Below are positions 1,347 to 6,183 of a stretch of 64,000 bases of DNA, piece by piece (within the stretch, counting starts at the first letter, position 1; every line of letters begins with the position of its first letter). The translations under genes and the position numbers were made by a program. The DNA is from Candidatus Marinacidobacterales bacterium (lineage in GTDB: Bacteria; Acidobacteriota; Vicinamibacteria; Marinacidobacterales; SMYC01). The stretch spans positions 1,760,001 through 1,824,000 of the forward strand of contig CBDCYI010000005.1 of the NCBI GenBank assembly GCA_965224085.1, written 5' to 3'. The notes under the pieces were generated by a model, which worked only from the letters and a program-made list of their open reading frames with translations, was not told the DNA's origin and ran no database searches.

Positions 1347-1511
1347 TGGAAGTACACGAAACGGCCAGGTCTTAGCTCCATCCAGCCGGCTACACTGTCC
1401 GAGTACGTCTTGAGCAAGTTCATTTTTTCCGTCGAGAGTCTCGAGCCCCTCGTTCTTCTGACGACGCTCGTCCTTATGGGGGTGGCCAAGGGCGGTGCGG
1501 GGTGGAAAAAG

Positions 1512-2844
1512 ATGTTCGGGCTCGGCAAGAAAGAAAAGAGCCCGGCTTCTGGTGCGGACCCTGCGCTCGCCGCGGGCGATTGGGAGCGGGCCGCCAAGAT
1601 ATTCGAAAAAGACGGACGTTATCGTGATGCGGCCAAGCTTTATCGAGGCAAGGGGCAGAACCACGAAGCAGCGCGTCTTCTCGTGCGCGCTGGAGCGCTT
1701 ACGGAAGCAGCGTCCATCTTCGAGCGGGTCGGACATTATCAAAAGGCTGCGGAGGTGTGCGCGCAGTCCGGGGACAACAAAAGAGCGGGCGAGAACTACC
1801 GGCACTACCTCGAAGACCGGTTCGGCACCCTCGCCCTCGCGCGCTCTCCGGCGGACCATGCGGAGTTCACGAAATATTGCCGGCTTGCCGGGCAAGCCTT
1901 CGAGCGCGCCGGACTTCTCGATCAAGCTGCGGAAGTGCTCGAGCGTGGCGAGCAGTGGGAGGATGCGGCTGCGCTGTTCCTCAAGCTCAATCGTCACGTG
2001 AAAGCCGCCGATCTCTATGAGCGTGCCGGAGCGGTGGACCACGCTGCCGACGCCTACGCGCAAGCGGGCGACCGTGTGCGCGCCGCGCAAATGCGAGGCG
2101 AGCATCTTTACAAGCAAGATCAGAAAAACGAGGCGGCGGTGCAGTTTCTCCTCGGTGGCGATCCGCTTCGAGCTGCCGAAGTCTACGAAGAAGCGGGAAA
2201 TTATCTCGACTCCGCACGCTGCTACGAGCATTGCGGCGCCCACCGTCAGGCCGCCGAGGCCTATGAGCGCGTGGAGCAATTCGGCCGCGCGGCGGAAATG
2301 TACGGACGGAGCCAGGACTATAAGAAAGCCGCGGCGCTCTACGAGAAGGCCGAAGACTGGGGCCAGGCGGCGCGGATGTTCGCCGAGTCAGGCGACTATT
2401 ATCGCGCCGCGAAGAACGCGCGCAAAGAGGGACTCACCGAGTTCGCCATCGACTGCCTCCAGAAGATCGAGACAACGAACCCCAATTATCAAGAATCCCT
2501 CGTCGAGCTCGGGCAGAGTTTCATGGAGCGGGATCTGCCGGGTGTCGCCGTGGAGAAGTTGAAGAAGGCGCTTCACGATCAGCCACTCGCGGCCAAGAAT
2601 CTCGACATCTATTACACGCTCGCGGTCGCTTCCGAGCAGATGGGTAGCTACGAAAAAGCTGTGGAGATCCTCAAGCAGATCGTCGCGGAAAACTACAGCT
2701 ATCGGGACGCCGTCGGGCGGCTCCAGGAGCTCCAGAAGAAGCCGGCGAAAGGGGCCACCGAGCCGTCACGCCATCAAGCCGCCAAAGAAGAGCTCGGTGG
2801 CAAGCGCTATGAGTTCATTGAGAAACTCGGCGCCGGCGGGATGG
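1512..2844 (+). pseudogene. N-terminal part of a TPR/helical-repeat Ser/Thr protein kinase, interrupted by IS110
   Basis: Many AAxxYExAG helical repeats, then RYEFIEKLGAGGM (kinase subdomain I), broken at 2844. Likely ATG at 1512. Confidence 0.9.
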
Positions 2845-2859
2845 ACTCCCCACGCCGGA

Positions 2860-4155
2860 TCAAGAGAAAACCTTCTTCGTAGGAATCATCGTCGATTCGC
2901 TTTTTGTTGTGGACGACCGCGAGGGGTCGTAAAGAGTTCTTTGTCGAAGCATCGCCATGGCGATGGGTAGAATGCGGTCCATGACGCCTCTGAGAGCTCT
3001 GGCATGGCTGTGGCCCGCGTCGCGAAGCCGATCGTAGTGCTTTTTAAAGTGTGGGTCGCGAAGCACGGCAGTGCTGGCCCAATGATGGAGAGCGTTATTG
3101 AGGGGCAAAGAGCGAGCTCTCCTCATCAGGATAGTTGGTCGCAACTGACCGCGCTTGCCGCTTTTTTTCGTGACGGGTGCGATGCCGCTGAGAGTCCTGA
3201 AGGCTTTGAGATTTCGTAGCCGAATGGGGTCGTGGGCATAGCAGAGCACGGAGGCGAGCACGTAAGCACCGACGCCGGGCAAAGAGGCAAGAATGGCAGC
3301 GTCGGAGCACTGCTTGTCGTTTAGTGCTTGCAAGCGCTTGAACCACTTCTCGAGATGCTGGTCGGAGGCACGACGATGTTGTCGAACGAGGAGCAACTGC
3401 TGAAGGAGCAGTTCGAGATGCTCAGAAGTAGCTTTGGTGGTTGCATGCGCGACTCGGAGTGGTTTTTGATTGAGGGTATCGAGGATCTGCTCGGGTTTTA
3501 CGCGTCGGATGCGGTGTTTTTTAACGAGCGTCTCGATGGTGTGGCGGCTAAGAGAGTTGGGGCTGGATTCGAAGAAGAGTTTTAGGAGCTCGCAGAAAAA
3601 CGCGTCGAGAGCCTTATTCTTTGGCGCGAGCGAGACGAGGTGAGGCCAACAGCGAGTAAGGAGTTCTCGGATCTGCGAGCTGAGGGCAACGTGGTTTTTG
3701 ACAAGTTGGTCGCGGGTGCTCAACAGCCCGCGCATAGCAAGGATCTCCGGAGGTGGAAGTTGCAAGCGCTGAAAGCGGTGACCGTCGGTTCTGAGCGAAT
3801 CGGCGAGAACGAAGGCGTCGCGCCGATCATCCTTGGCGCCGCTCATAGAATGCCGGTCGCGGAAACGGTCGACCTGCTTGGGATTGATGGAGAAAATGGC
3901 GATGGCGTTGTCAAGAAAGAGCTCGACGACGGCTCCATGAGGCTTTTCGATCGCCACTGCGATGCGCTCGGTGTCTTGCGTGGTCAGTTCCAGAAGCCAG
4001 CCGATCGTTTCTGAAAGTCCTTCGCGGCTATGAGGAAAGCCGCGCTCCCCCATAAATTGTCCCCTGGTATCGACCACGCTGGCCAAGTGAAGCCATTGGC
4101 CCAGGTCGACACCGACGAAGAAGTCGTAGTCGAGCTGATTCCTGGAAGAACTCAT
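2860..4155 (-). CDS. IS110-family DEDD recombinase (transposase)
   Basis: VGVDLG, VAIEK and KDDRRDA (DEDD residues), SLPGVG, GIAPVTKKSGK (catalytic Ser region). ATG at 4155. Confidence 0.95.
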   Translation of the reverse strand: MSSSRNQLDYDFFVGVDLGQWLHLASVVDTRGQFMGERGFPHSREGLSETIGWLLELTTQDTERIAVAIEKPHGAVVELFLDNAIAIFSINPKQVDRFRDRHSMSGAKDDRRDAFVLADSLRTDGHRFQRLQLPPPEILAMRGLLSTRDQLVKNHVALSSQIRELLTRCWPHLVSLAPKNKALDAFFCELLKLFFESSPNSLSRHTIETLVKKHRIRRVKPEQILDTLNQKPLRVAHATTKATSEHLELLLQQLLLVRQHRRASDQHLEKWFKRLQALNDKQCSDAAILASLPGVGAYVLASVLCYAHDPIRLRNLKAFRTLSGIAPVTKKSGKRGQLRPTILMRRARSLPLNNALHHWASTAVLRDPHFKKHYDRLRDAGHSHARALRGVMDRILPIAMAMLRQRTLYDPSRSSTTKSESTMIPTKKVFS

Positions 4156-4158
4156 TGC

Positions 4159-4313
4159 CGTCAGCGCATGTGATGTTTCATCGGCCCCTGTACCGGCGCT
4201 CGAAGCGCAACTCCCCATTGGATGTCCATCACAAGAAAATTGCCGGCACGCGTGTCCATACCGGGCGCTCGGAGCGCAGGGCGAAGTATGGCGTTGCCGG
4301 CAAGCTGCTGACG
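4159..4313 (-). ncRNA. Predicted bridge RNA (target-binding loop plus donor-binding loop)
   Basis: Closing stem 4159-4165/4307-4313. Target arm stem 4240-4248/4295-4303 with guides 4279-4287 and 4256-4262. Donor arm stem 4169-4175/4227-4233 with guides 4210-4217 (identical to end 2845-2852) and 4187-4193 (reverse complement of 5440-5446). Confidence 0.88.
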
Positions 4314-4350
4314 AAATCGAAAATAGTTCAAGCTCATCGTGAGATTTGCT

Positions 4351-4767
4351 CTACCACTGCAATCGAAGCTGGCGCGCGATGCCACCAGCTCGTGCTGGTT
4401 TTTTTCTCGGTTGTTTCGGGCGAAGCACGTCTGCGAGTTTTTCTCGAAGGTAGCGAACATAAGGCGGGTCTAGATATTCACTTCGCACTTCCTCGAGCAC
4501 AGGTGAAAAATAGCGAAGGGAGCGAATGGGTTGTAGTGGCTCCTCATGCTCTTGTAGCTCCCGACGAGCGCAACCCAGAAGTAGGGCGCACTCGAATTCG
4601 TATAACGGGACGCCCTGGCGGTAGAGTCGCGTCGCCATGAAGCGATCGTCGCGCCGTGGTCGCTCAGGTGTGTTCGGAATAGAAACATAGATATCCAAAA
4701 CCGCCCGGACATAATCGTTTTCTGTTAGAGCGTCGCTCGTGAGCGGTTTATCACTGAGCTTCGACAT
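4351..4767 (-). CDS. IS110 accessory helical protein (about 138 aa), function unknown
   Basis: GGAGG RBS before ATG 4767; overlaps the upstream ORF stop. Motifs YVRAVLDIY, QGVPL and PIRSLRYF. Confidence 0.75.
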   Translation of the reverse strand: MSKLSDKPLTSDALTENDYVRAVLDIYVSIPNTPERPRRDDRFMATRLYRQGVPLYEFECALLLGCARRELQEHEEPLQPIRSLRYFSPVLEEVRSEYLDPPYVRYLREKLADVLRPKQPRKKPARAGGIARQLRLQW

Positions 4768-5156
4768 CCATCCACCTCCCGCGTCCGCCGCAGATACAGC
4801 ATTTGGCATATCCGAAACTGTCAAGCTTCGTTTTCATTGAAAGAACCATCGAGCTCCGTGACCGGATCTGTTCTCTGATTCCTACATTGCCCGAGTTACC
4901 GACGTGAATGGAACCATGATCCGTTACTTTTTCTTGGTGTCGTCGATACTCACGTTGCCGGTCCGCACAATCTCGACTGTCCTTCGACACTTTCTCGATC
5001 TTTGCGGTTGTAGCCGCGACACTTTATTAGGCCGGCATGATAAGAGCACGCTTTACCGCAGTAGCAGTGTCCACGGTCACAGCTCTTGCAGATGTAGAAG
5101 GCCTCTGAACAGTTACGACAAAAACGCTGGTACACAACGACTGGTTTGGTGGCCAT
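4751..5156 (-). CDS. IS110 accessory Cys-rich Zn-finger protein, with a 1-nt frameshift near 4978
   Basis: CRNC..CKSCDRGHCYCGKAC in one frame, continuing as DRQREYRRHQEKVTDHGS...CCICG in the next frame. Confidence 0.72.
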
Positions 5157-5444
5157 TTGAGACTCAGCAAGCGCTGGACTATGGCCGCCCGTCTGTGAGA
5201 GGCTAGCTTCCACCTGTACTGGAGCGCCTCCTTCGGGGGGCCATCCAAACATCAGAGCCCCGGTCGTTTCTGGCGGCCGGGGCTCGCTATTGTTGCACAG
5301 CAGGCTCACCCTTATCTCGCCGGGGCGAGACGATCTGACTGCCTCGCGCCTACGGCGCGAGATGATGCCTTGTGCATACACATTTTGGTTCGACCTTCCG
5401 CGTAGCTCACGCTTTCGCTGTTCTGACGCTTCCGCAAGCGTACA

Positions 5445-6183
5445 GGGCGTCGTCTATCGCGCCAAAGACACGCGGCTCAATCGCATCGTGGCCTACAAGA
5501 TGCTCATGGAGCAGTTCATGGAGGTCAAAGAGGTCCGGGAGCGCTTCTTGCGCGAAGCACAATCGGCAGCGCAGCTCAATCATCCGAATATCGTCACGGT
5601 GTTCGACGTGGACGTCGACTCGGAGCAGAACCGGCTCTTCATCGCTATGGAGTTCGTCGCGGGTGAAAGCTATTTCGACATCCTTCAGCGTGAGACGAGA
5701 CTCTCGATCCAGCAGACCGTTCAGTTCATCGGAGGCGTTCTCAAAGCGCTCGCCCACGCGCATCGCCACGGCGTCCTCCACCGCGATATCAAGCCTTCGA
5801 ACGTGATGCTCTCGAAACAGCGCGTCGTCAAGATCATGGATTTCGGCCTCGCCAAGATACTTCGAGACGCGAAAGCGCAGGGCAGTGAGAAGGCGAGCGG
5901 GACGCCGCTCTACATGTCTCCAGAGCAGATTCTCGGCAAGGCACTCGACTTCCGCACGGATATCTACGCCTTTGGAGGGACCGTGTATCACCTCCTCGCG
6001 GGCGAGCCACCTTTCGTTGATGGCGAAGTGCTCTACCATCACGTGCACACACCCGCGCGCTCGCTGAAAGACTTGCGGCCGGACGTTCCGAAGGTGCTCT
6101 GCAGCATCGTTATGGCTTGTCTCAACAAGGAGCCCGCCGACCGGCCGACCTCCGACCAAATCCTGAAAATGTTGAAGAAGTAG
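5445..6183 (+). pseudogene. C-terminal part (catalytic domain) of the interrupted Ser/Thr kinase
   Basis: GVVYRAKD, VAYK, HRDIKPSN, DFGLAK, GTPLYMSPEQ. Confidence 0.93.

Follow-up and report, generated by a model that had tools for sequence, protein, structure and literature searches.

The closest described systems are IS621 and other members of the IS110 group. According to the main report on them (Durrant et al. 2024, PMC11208160; structures 8wt6 and others), the recombinase carries the domains PF01548 and PF02371, and a non-coding RNA with two internal loops lies upstream of its gene. The 5' side of each loop corresponds to the left top strand and the 3' side to the reverse complement on the right. 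The left target guide has 9 nt, including a 2-nt core, the right end is very short, and -35- and -10-like hexamers meet across the joined ends. The element described here is alike in these respects. It differs in targeting a protein-coding paralogous family, whereas theirs target REP or other intergenic repeats, and in having the core CC, where IS621 has CT. It further differs from IS621 in its right target guide of 7 nt, like that of the 'extended' forms, and in the position of the RNA, ~1.13 kb from the left end and behind two ORFs (PMC11208160).

Repeat-targeting IS110/IS1111 elements include ISPpu9/ISPpu10 and ISPa11 at REP sequences, ISKpn4/ISPst6 at attC, and IS4321/IS5075 at Tn21-type inverted repeats (PMC11187229 and other literature). 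Our element likewise has a many-copy genomic sequence as landing site and a fixed orientation, but those repeats are non-coding or structural and alike at the nucleotide level. Cargo-bearing 'expanded' IS110 loci share with it a size above the canonical ~1.5 kb and the presence of extra genes, but carry adaptive cargo, e.g. resistance and metal detoxification genes, and the word 'kinase' is absent from the text on them (bioRxiv 10.64898/2026.08.14.744561). A literature search found no paper describing the glycine-rich loop of kinases as the target of such an element. Inteins, homing endonuclease genes, and group II introns settle in conserved gene motifs and are removed by splicing of the RNA or the protein, so that the host gene still works. 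The element resembles them in its selfish use of a sequence that cannot drift, coding for a conserved protein motif, but it disrupts the gene and relies on many paralogues.

Location and gene content of the element

The window, i.e., the whole stretch of 64,000 nucleotides that we analysed, contains what is very probably a cargo-bearing, bridge-RNA-guided element of the IS110 group whose natural programmed target is the DNA coding for the glycine-rich loop (GxGGMG-E/D-V) of Hanks-type Ser/Thr kinases. The features are as follows, with their basis in brackets.

1410-2844, plus strand: 5' part of the interrupted gene, with TPR repeats and the kinase start to GAGGM and the first G of the next codon (ORF list, Pfam TPR families, sequence)
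2843-2844: core dinucleotide GG (CC on the element strand), right-end side (sequence)
2845-5446, minus strand: IS110-family element, 2602 bp with one copy of the GG/CC core (copies in the same genome end at exactly the same letters)
2858-2863, minus strand: -35-like hexamer TTGATC, 13 nt before the right end, overlapping the recombinase stop codon (sequence)
2860-4155, minus strand: putative recombinase gene, 431 aa from the ATG at 4155 (PF01548, PF02371, match to 8wt6_A)
4150-4330, minus strand: bridge-RNA-like region with outer stem, stem 1, target-binding loop, donor-loop stem, and donor-binding loop (fold and covariation)
4187-4193, minus strand: right donor guide GTACAGG, reverse complement of the left-end terminus CC-TGTAC (sequence)
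4210-4216, minus strand: left donor guide GGGGAGT, same letters as the right-end terminus (sequence)
4256-4262, minus strand: right target guide GGTATGG, specifying CC-ATACC (sequence; guide comparison)
4279-4287, minus strand: left target guide ACTTCGC and core CC (sequence; register by the IS621 rule in PMC11208160)
4351-4767, minus strand: accessory ORF2, 138 aa, with an invariant RSLRYF motif (conserved in relatives)
4751-5156, minus strand: accessory ORF1, Cys-rich, ~130 aa in relatives (three-frame translation; family alignment with conserved Cys columns)
5437-5442, minus strand: -10-like hexamer TACGCT in the left end (sequence; related left ends start CCTG-TACNNT)
5445-5446: core dinucleotide GG, left-end side (sequence, ends in the same genome, empty-site contig)
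5447-6183, plus strand: remainder of the interrupted kinase gene on the 3' side, from (G)VVYRAKD... through the stop (Pkinase, E 4.8e-53)

The plus strand reads GGC GCC GGC GGG ATG G (2829-2844), then ACTCCCC...GTACA (2845-5444), GG (5445-5446), and GC GTC GTC TAT. The gene is thus interrupted at GAGGM|GVVY with GG on each side, as the initial annotation had stated. Pfam places TPR families on 1410-2845 and Pkinase on 5446-6183, the latter from profile position 13. On the element strand, the left end (core CC, then TGTAC) lies at 5446 and the right end (GGGGAGT) at 2845, and the same core flanks every element end in this genome. The empty site occurs in contigs of a ~90% identical relative, present in runs of two studies: 2842 is joined to 5445, skipping 2602 letters, with a joint ambiguous by 2 letters. 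The run data examined were contigs, in which starts, ends, and rare junctions are not visible.

Judged by its domains, DEDD_Tnp_IS110 (PF01548, E 6e-30) and Transposase_20 (PF02371, E 2.7e-11), the element encodes a recombinase of the DEDD/Ser type. Its similarity to IS621 is remote: the match to the transposase 8wt6_A (E 4.3e-7) covers the C-terminal domain only. A second ATG lies upstream of the start, at 4218, within the RNA region. The kinase-targeting elements stand apart in a quick tree of 48 recombinases, on one side of a branch of length 0.9 that has support 100.

Only the kinase-targeting lineage has conserved accessory ORFs, one or two in number; both are absent from the first reading of the window. 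ORF2 is 39-88% identical to the window copy in 11 relatives, has no family in Pfam, NCBIfam, or PHROGs, and is modelled as five helices (pLDDT 77.8). ORF1 (model pLDDT 76.4) has a +1 frameshift in the window, with the N-terminal half at 4950-5156 and the C-terminal half in another frame down to 4751; it is also frameshifted in copy F of the same genome. Being specific to the lineage and conserved with the element, the two small ORFs look more like accessory element genes.

In 46 of 52 related loci, a TTGA[C/T]N motif precedes the right end by 13-14 nt. If the two ends meet in a circle, the -35- and -10-like hexamers of the window copy would be 17 nt apart. Within the element, a search of the element strand gave no sigma-70-like site. 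The bridge RNA lies ~1.13 kb from the left end, and the junction promoter may therefore not be what expresses it.

Guides of the bridge-RNA-like region

Directly upstream of the recombinase gene lies a predicted two-loop RNA structure whose stems covary. Across 70 relatives, its 31 pairs are paired in 87.3% of cells, against 34-43% with the partner slid, and 26 of them show double (compensatory) changes; the observed values were reached by none of 500 shuffles. The call of an RNA structure is made on this covariation and not on the single-sequence minimum-free-energy fold, which is no better than shuffles (z -1.1). A search of the region against Rfam gave no family match.

The donor loop matches the element's own ends, and the target loop matches, in antisense, the kinase P-loop codons. 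On the element strand, the donor loop reads GGGGAGT, hairpin GCGCT-TCG-AGCGC, GTACAGG. Compared with the ends, GGGGAGT|CC|TGTAC, the left guide matches 7/7 without the core and the right guide 7/7 including it, i.e., 12/12 flank letters (chance 6e-8 in fixed register). No CC is seen after the left donor guide, so the core pairing of the published IS621 scheme is not evident there (PMC11208160).

The target loop reads ACTTCGCCC, hairpin GCGCT-CCG-AGCGC, GGTATGG. We confirmed from the sequence that it specifies a 14-mer antisense to GGT ATG GGC GAA GT (G-M-G-E-V), as initially proposed together with the two-loop architecture, which the covarying stems bear out. A recount also gave the same 11/14 match to the occupied site, ACGACGC-CC-ATCCC (chance of at least 11/14 in fixed register, 4e-5), and the description as a '3-mismatch insertion' holds as a count. 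The mismatches comprise a wobble position, a third-codon position with a differing residue, and the second position of a codon, giving Val instead of Glu. IS621 strongly prefers perfect target matches (PMC11208160), whereas the window copy has these three to its own guide.

Copies and relatives at kinase sites

The genome, which has 46 Pkinase matches, contains 12 copies or fragments of two subfamilies (85% identical to each other), with 10 full right ends, one 27-bp right-end fragment, and 9 left ends. Kinase P-loop halves clearly adjoin eight copies. Right-end flanks read ..G(G/C)M in 8/10 and left-end flanks G(E/D/V)VY in 5/9; two of the four tested flanks of the other copies match Pkinase from profile position 13. 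Copies D and J have a kinase-like flank on the right side only, and three of the 12 have none (B, in an amidohydrolase gene, I, and K). Termini and donor guides are common to both subfamilies. The window copy is the only full-length member of its subfamily, whose right guide matches 5/5 at its two other right ends and whose left guide matches 6/7 at its one other left end. The second subfamily has the guides ACGTCGC-CC and GGAATGG, which give GGA ATG GGC GAC GT (G-M-G-D-V), and its sites are 1, 1, 2, 2, 3, and 5 letters off the predicted target. Three of its five full sites with at most 3 mismatches have kinase on both sides (p 1.5e-4); among unoccupied 14-mers within the same distance, 15/713 (~2%) have a kinase context.

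The same site is taken by relatives in many metagenome contigs as well as in three genomes, the present one and two others of Acidobacteriota. We scanned metagenomes with the donor-loop pattern, which holds no information on the target. At least 120 stretches match; among the matches listed are 80 loci, of which 23, and one incomplete locus, show the stem-1 motif typical of this lineage (contigs that are related do not count as independent). All 24 have guides reading GGN-ATG-GGN-(GAN or CAA)-GT, with variation almost only at third-codon positions. We parsed 27 elements: 23 metagenome loci, one element from each of the two other genomes (L018 and L044), and our genome's two subfamilies. All 27 have guides of the form AC-N-T-[C/G]-N-C followed by CC (CT in one), and GG-N-ATGG. 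The eight left and four right target guides among them all antisense-translate to G-M-G-(E/D/Q)-V; the differences are at third-codon positions, except for a single first-position change that gives Q.

The initial annotation had predicted that other copies and homologues would be inserted at GGM|GEV kinase codons, and this is what the flanks give. In the two other genomes and the metagenomes, 13/13 distinct left flanks have the reading G[E/V]V[Y/F/W], with only GE or GEV visible in two before a contig end or stop codon, and 13/13 right flanks read ...G[G/A]M. There, all 7 left flanks of at least 40 aa match Pkinase from profile position 13; of the nine flanks with this match (7 elsewhere and two in our genome), two are short and below the Pfam cut-off, one of them among the 7. 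L018, with a recombinase 61-62% identical to that of the window, has the guides ACTTCAC-CC and GGGATGG and sits at ACTTCGC-CC-ATCCC in AIGAGGM|GEVYRARD. In L044, from a genome of the same genus, the left target guide is ACCTCTC-CC and the left flank ACCTCAC reads GEVYRARD.

Guides also track their own targets. Non-wobble guide positions match the element's own site in 163/166 cases. Wobble positions do so in 31/55, against a mean of 18.7 with guides shuffled among sites (0/20000 shuffles as high). Flanks and guides of the relatives thereby support the earlier proposal of a conserved kinase motif as programmed target, with paralogues as repeated landing sites.

The 56 other loci among the matches listed (L114-L193 without the kinase lineage) have a related recombinase, the RNA scaffold of the kinase lineage, and donor guides and termini (GGGGAGT-CC-TGTAC) identical to those found there. 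Most of them differ in the target loop, and their sites are REP-like palindromes or lie close to a tRNA 3' end; one reads like a tRNA T-arm followed by the 3' end. The left ends of these loci have 113-308 nt and lack ORF1, ORF2, or any extra ORF. Relatives of 40% identity in the same order are located in palindromic repeats.

Alternative readings and proposed mechanism

Some of these data would fit other accounts. The family may target the P-loop while the window copy was placed by something other than its current guide, i.e., by the RNA of the second subfamily in trans, by an earlier version of the guide, since changed, or by half-match recombination. The occupied site is indeed 2 letters from the predicted target of the second subfamily and 3 from that of the window copy, the shared termini and donor guides would permit placement in trans, and half-match substrates are reported in a 2026 preprint to be enough for a large share of the off-target insertions of IS621 (10.64898/2026.08.31.748434). 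However, lineage elements elsewhere sit 1-2 mismatches off their own guides, so the three mismatches fall in the tail of the same distribution, and nothing singles out which RNA acted on the window site. We regard this account as possible, though rather unlikely. We are similarly doubtful that the window copy, perhaps with its whole subfamily, is a fossil, inserted once by the guided mechanism and no longer mobile. The frameshift of ORF1 in the window copy and copy F and the truncation of the three other members point that way, and the insertions look stable, since contigs from runs of three studies show the flanks of the same other copies. Yet the recombinase frame is open, with a protein 100% identical in three copies, the RNA region and both termini are intact, and the 99.8-99.9% DNA identity of the copies points to recent movement.

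It seems very improbable that the kinase association arose mainly from selection, with loose insertion at ...ATGG-like sites, survival only in dispensable kinase paralogues, and the guide match secondary. Non-kinase sites within 3 mismatches are far commoner (432 sites for the guide of the window, 15 of them kinase-like), and some copies lie elsewhere, e.g. in the amidohydrolase gene. Against this, non-wobble positions match almost throughout and wobble positions track each element's own site; guides of diverged elements keep within the G-M-G-E/D-V codon space; and in sister groups, a different target loop goes with a different, matching site. Nor would selection alone explain why both the phase (Pkinase profile position 13) and the orientation are exactly the same in every case.

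We therefore favour a target programmed by the guides, and by analogy with IS621 propose the following. The element would excise as a circle, closed at the CC core between its right and left ends, and this would unite the -35-like TTGATC with the -10-like TACGCT; transcription from the junction would pass ORF1, ORF2, the bridge RNA, and the recombinase gene. In a complex of recombinase and RNA, the donor loop would then pair with the junction, and the target loop with a kinase P-loop. Strands would be exchanged at the core, which on the kinase strand would be the last G of ATG and the first G of the next Gly codon, so that insertion would always be antisense to the kinase, with the cut after GxGGM. 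The window copy would be one such insertion into a paralogue, with 3 mismatches.

The guides of the element and its relatives complement glycine-rich-loop DNA, and a whole gene family thus appears to serve as landing site. Since these targets are kept alike only by selection on the protein motif, the guides of this lineage face synonymous variation. Of the 14 nt of the target, 11 positions are fixed by the motif and 3 are third-codon positions, and one guide may therefore find many paralogues at 0-3 mismatches.

The element and the kinase that it interrupts

Read directly on the plus strand, the sequence runs to ...GGC GCC GGC GGG ATG G at 2844, continues with ACTCCCC...GTACA (2845-5444) and GG (5445-5446), and resumes with GC GTC GTC TAT. 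The GG core is present at both borders of the element, and removal of 2,602 nt from the window restores the motif GAGGMGVVY. The target gene is a Hanks-type Ser/Thr kinase: the upstream ORF of the split gene, which is rich in TPR repeats (ORF list and Pfam), carries GAGGM, and the downstream part is a Pkinase domain (PF00069, E 4.8e-53) that starts from profile position 13, right behind the Gly-rich loop. The features are as follows.

2845-5446, minus strand: IS110-family element, 2,602 bp with one copy of the core
4751-5156, minus strand: accessory ORF1
4351-4767, minus strand: accessory ORF2
about 4150-4330, minus strand: bridge-RNA-like region, directly 5' of the recombinase gene
5290-6183, plus strand: open frame from the left end of the element into the 3' part of the kinase

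An empty site gives independent support for the limits of the element. Contigs from public runs of two studies join 2842 to 5445 and skip 2,602 nt, with 2 letters ambiguous. With about 90% identity to the unique flank upstream of the element, they represent the uninterrupted gene of a relative, a scarless empty site. Loose contig ends in the same runs match the flanks of other copies of the element. On the plus strand, the frame at 5290-6183 begins within the left end of the element and continues stop-free into the 3' part of the kinase; its translation could in principle yield a truncated kinase devoid of the Gly-rich loop.

The recombinase, encoded on the minus strand, has 431 aa and the two Pfam domains of IS110 proteins, DEDD_Tnp_IS110 (PF01548, N-terminal, RuvC-like; E 6e-30, residues 14-171, full profile) and Transposase_20 (PF02371, C-terminal; E 2.7e-11). 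The solved bridge recombinases are remote relatives (IS621 transposase 8wt6_A, E 4.3e-7; ISCro4 transposase 9t56_A, E 1.6e-6). The initial annotation had described the insertion site, its GG core and the recombinase correctly.

A predicted two-loop RNA and its guides

The fold predicted for the region upstream of the recombinase gene has an outer stem and a long stem 1, and each of its two internal loops surrounds a hairpin of the form GCGCT-NNN-AGCGC. This two-loop structure, proposed in the initial annotation, was borne out by covariation among 70 distinct relatives, although the folding energy of the single sequence is unremarkable (z -1.1). The four specified helices are 87.3% paired across these relatives, compared with 34-43% when the partner is slid, and 26 of the 31 pairs show two-sided changes; none of 500 shuffles reached the observed values. 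The alignment omits exact duplicates, loci clipped by a contig end and three loci in which the target-loop side is non-homologous (L168, L169, and L173). We rejected the RNAalifold consensus of the 70 sequences, in which the donor guides were falsely paired, and scored the structure that we had specified instead. An Rfam scan of 2700-5600 with E up to 1 returned no family, a result that carries no weight for or against a bridge RNA.

In the IS621 rule, the left guide is the same sequence as the left flank plus the core, and the right guide the reverse complement of the core plus the right flank (PMC11208160). Read in this way, the donor loop GGGGAGT / GTACAGG is an exact fit to GGGGAGT-CC-TGTAC, the ends of the element itself: GGGGAGT is the terminus of the right end and GTACAGG the reverse complement of CC-TGTAC. 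The window's element differs from the IS621 scheme in that no CC follows its left donor guide, so that no core pairing is visible there. In the same register, the target loop ACTTCGC-CC / GGTATGG specifies ACTTCGC-CC-ATACC, whose reverse complement is GGT ATG GGC GAA GT. Both this antisense reading and the 11/14 matches to the occupied site (three differences) were confirmed as annotated. Ten full sites of relatives outside the source genome have 12-14/14 matches to their own guides. Two other ways of delimiting the guides were rejected: CATAC/GTATG as a stem, since the pairing is missing in the relative L018, and guides longer than 9+7 nt, since the adjacent letters agree with the site in just 3/13 and 3/12 cases.

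TTGATC is found 13 nt ahead of the tip of the right end, and CC-TG-TACGCT opens the left end. A -35-like hexamer lies at the same place in 46 of the 52 related right ends. Joining the ends would bring together putative -35 and -10 hexamers separated by 17 nt, which agrees with the junction promoter known from IS110 elements (PMC11208160). The predicted RNA lies about 1.13 kb inside the element, behind two ORFs, and a consensus promoter scan of the element strand inside the element found none nearer to it. By analogy with IS621, the element would leave as a circle and its RNA would direct recombination at the CC core; among the joins listed for contigs of public runs there was no circle junction. 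Contigs of a public RNA-library run (X19), compared with 2600-5700, are 90-95% alike and cover parts of the recombinase gene and ORF2 of a relative, none of them extending over 4264-4471; these are assembled contigs from a library that may contain DNA, and such matches are read neither as expression nor as its absence. One of them continues into a flank encoding LGPYEILAPI, the kind of sequence that usually precedes a kinase P-loop.

Insertion sites in the source genome and in relatives

The source genome (6.87 Mb in 12 contigs) contains 10 full right ends, one 27-bp right-end fragment and 9 left ends. They belong to two subfamilies, 85% identical and with common termini: that of the window, with one full and three truncated copies, and a second one with five full or near-full copies (one lacking about 170 nt), one copy with a large internal deletion and two fragments. 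The target loop of the second subfamily, ACGTCGC-CC / GGAATGG, reads GGA ATG GGC GAC GT, i.e., G-M-G-D-V. The initial annotation had expected the other copies to lie at GGM|GEV codons of kinase genes. Within this genome the expectation holds for most ends: ...G(G/C)M precedes the element at 8 of the 10 right ends, mostly after a kinase YEIL-type context, and G(E/D/V)VY... follows at 5 of the 9 left ends. It fails for copies B, I and K, which have no kinase-like flank, and copies D and J are kinase-like on the right side only. Mismatches to the subfamily's own guide number 0-3 at kinase sites and up to 5 at copy B.

Only 15 of the 713 unoccupied GG-core 14-mers within 3 mismatches of the second subfamily's target are in a kinase context, compared with 3 of the 5 full sites that this subfamily occupies within the same limit (binomial p 1.5e-4), and the concentration in kinases therefore exceeds what is expected from sequence similarity alone. 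In the genome, 46 Pkinase matches reach E 1e-10 or better, and a strict motif scan gave 27 intact P-loop kinases, of which 11 differ from the window's guide by no more than 3 letters. Insertions have struck at least 8 kinase genes out of roughly 50, plus one scarred kinase. The latter lies outside the window, at 655150-655260 of contig C11, where ...YEILEPIGK is followed by CGTACAGG and then by GT GAG GTC TAT (GEVY); the GGM codons are replaced by the final left-end letters and the core, and the gene is out of frame at this point. A deleted element seems to have left this scar, at which kinase and left end overlap by the five letters GCAAG. Two kinase fragments begin at profile position 13 with no adjoining element, and one of these is merely a GGIGIV variant.

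Several copies of the source genome are rearranged or decayed. Copy F (C11:764578-766945, window's subfamily) stops 260 nt before the left end and adjoins the 27-bp right-end fragment, which is inverted and has its own GGAATGG flank; either two elements were rearranged with each other here, or the event is a nested one. Copy G (C4:1482119-1483633) keeps its right end along with the recombinase gene and bridge-RNA region, and breaks off sharply some 90 nt upstream of the target loop; its right flank lies in a kinase (GAGGM) and matches the guide at 5/5 positions. Copies B (C11:626418-629058) and E (C9:115784-118249) have one additional C early in the recombinase gene, and their protein match starts only at residue 39. 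The site of copy B is in an amidohydrolase gene (SGDM|GYYV), off the guide at 5/14 positions; copy E lacks about 170 nt internally, and past GDVYRAK its left flank is no longer kinase-like. In copies D (C5:801192-803830) and J (C5:333088-334698, about 1 kb of the interior missing), the right flanks end in ...GGM and the left flanks are not kinase-like, which would be compatible with a deletion or an inversion running from an element end to a half-matching site.

We searched for relatives of the element in genomes and metagenomes. A scan of a genome collection with the recombinase returned 60 loci, just 2 of which belong to the kinase lineage, here defined by a stem-1 motif outside all guides. 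In one of them, L018 (Acidobacteria MAG), the recombinase is 61-62% identical to the window's, and the guides ACTTCAC-CC / GGGATGG face the site ACTTCGC-CC-ATCCC within AIGAGGM|GEVYRARD. The other, L044 (same genus as the source), has the left target guide ACCTCTC-CC, the left flank GEVYRARD and an incomplete recombinase gene. A scan of metagenome contigs, with a pattern built from the donor loop only, matched at least 120 stretches; the 80 loci listed include 23 members of the kinase lineage plus the incomplete L191.

In all 27 parsed elements of the lineage (the 23 metagenome loci, the two subfamilies of the source genome, L018 and L044), the left target guide is AC-N-T-[C/G]-N-C and the right one GG-N-ATGG. 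The 8 left-guide variants differ at the third bases of the Gly and Glu/Asp codons, with one exception (Glu to Gln), and the 4 right-guide variants solely in the third position of the Gly codon before ATG. Insertion into the P-loop recurs, exact in phase and fixed in orientation. Among the matches listed and the two other genomes, all 13 distinct left flanks and all 13 right flanks are kinase P-loop halves, which is what the initial annotation had anticipated (on the left side, the site of L182 is that of L133 and was entered once; two left flanks show GE or GEV only, because of a contig end or a stop). Left flanks of at least 40 aa start at Pkinase profile position 13 in 7/7 cases, as do 2 of the 4 own-genome flanks tested; of the nine flanks placed there, two are short and below the Pfam cut-off. 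Identical guides are found in different kinases (L125/L185, L127/L160, and L159/L184). The comparison of guides with targets that the annotation had proposed showed that guides track their own sites: agreement is 163/166 at non-wobble positions, and 31/55 at wobble (third-codon) positions, where random reassignment of guides to sites gave a mean of 18.7 and in none of 20,000 rounds a value as high, the wobble test being somewhat inflated by the relatedness of the elements and by common host codon usage. The left flank of L139 reads GEV*RACDERLNRDVAIKAL, with a stop codon in place of the usual Tyr, as if the split kinase gene were decaying.

The other 56 of the 80 loci listed share the donor loop and RNA scaffold of the kinase lineage. 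Most have different target loops, again in agreement with the flanks of each locus, for example in REP-like palindromes or at a site resembling a tRNA T-arm and 3' end; the target-loop side is non-homologous in three loci and lost at a contig end in another. With scaffold and donor specificity unchanged, the target loop has thus been retargeted many times in nature, and the kinase P-loop is among the resulting targets. In L175, L121, L193 and L114, the target loop matches ...GGTTCGAATCTCC-CC-TCGCTCCGCCA or similar, which resembles the end of a tRNA gene (T-arm and 3' end). L124, L148, L149, L180 and L190 lie within palindromic AGGGGGA...TCCCCCT repeats, with matching target loops; for L148 and L149 the target loop has no obvious flank match. 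Relatives with about 40% identity occupy palindromic REP-like repeats; 7 copies were compared in one genome of the same order and 5 in another, and a further genome from elsewhere in the phylum shows the same. When 401 genomes of the phylum were searched at the DNA level with the RNA region, the sole match outside the source genome was weak and belonged to an element in a REP-like repeat of one other genome. In a tree of 48 recombinases (quick maximum-likelihood search, midpoint root only), a branch of length 0.9 and SH-aLRT 100 separates the kinase-targeting elements from the others.

Accessory genes and significance of the target class

The left ends of the sister loci measure 113-308 nt, a usual length for IS110. 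Long left ends, of about 710 or about 1,190-1,260 nt, are found only in the kinase lineage. ORF1 (about 127-135 aa, with conserved N-terminal Cys columns and a C-terminal CxxCGR motif) is present in every member with sufficient left-end sequence, and ORF2 (124-138 aa, RSLRYF invariant) in the long left-end forms. Their conservation down to about 30-45% identity indicates that they are real genes. In the window's copy, ORF1 is broken by a +1 frameshift; it is intact in the second, more numerous subfamily. Neither protein matched a family in Pfam, NCBIfam or PHROGs, and the protein atlas returned unnamed clusters only. Structure models of moderate confidence (pLDDT 76-78) gave nothing below E 1 with Foldseek against the PDB. 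In a wide structural search neither protein had a convincing relative: the best scores were Z 7.4 for ORF2 (AAA+ lid-like helical bundles, under the tool's meaningful level for helical proteins) and Z 3.7 for ORF1. Because both ORFs co-occur with the kinase lineage, we lean towards accessory functions of the element rather than cargo.

Bridge RNAs are known as programmable guides that in nature are directed at repeated non-coding DNA, and scarless excision of IS110 elements has been reported. The reading of the initial annotation, an IS110 guide aimed at the P-loop codons of a kinase family, is supported by the guides, the flanks and the contrast groups. A bridge-RNA IS110 element as such is known; the target class appears to be new, and beyond it there are the lineage-specific accessory genes and the unusual internal position of the RNA. 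A literature search, with most subscription journals and supplementary target tables outside its scope, found no IS110 element aimed at kinase genes or at a protein-coding motif. The word 'kinase' is absent from the texts of PMC11208160, PMC11187229, 10.64898/2026.08.14.744561 and 10.64898/2026.10.21.760802.

One can join these observations in a bolder account, which we consider unlikely: a lineage specialised on a protein motif, with guides moving in the synonymous space of G-M-G-E/D-V and so following host codon usage, ORF1 (Cys-rich and probably zinc-binding) and ORF2 as enabling factors, and reversible switching of kinases if excision is scarless. If this were true, the two proteins might, e.g., give access to transcribed coding DNA, control the junction promoter or set the direction of recombination; insertion and scarless excision would turn single kinase paralogues off and on, which would make the element a natural, RNA-guided editor of a family of signalling genes.

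The supported reading is that of a guide tuned by evolution to a protein-coding motif common to dozens of paralogues per genome. The lineage offers a natural series of reprogrammed guides on one scaffold (8 left and 4 right variants), with sister groups aimed elsewhere, and its guide-site pairs are data on tolerated mismatches. The two conserved accessory proteins raise the question of their part in bridge recombination. In surveys of IS110 targets it is worth translating the flanks, as other lineages may aim at other protein motifs. For the transposon, gene-family redundancy represents a new route to many safe landing sites.
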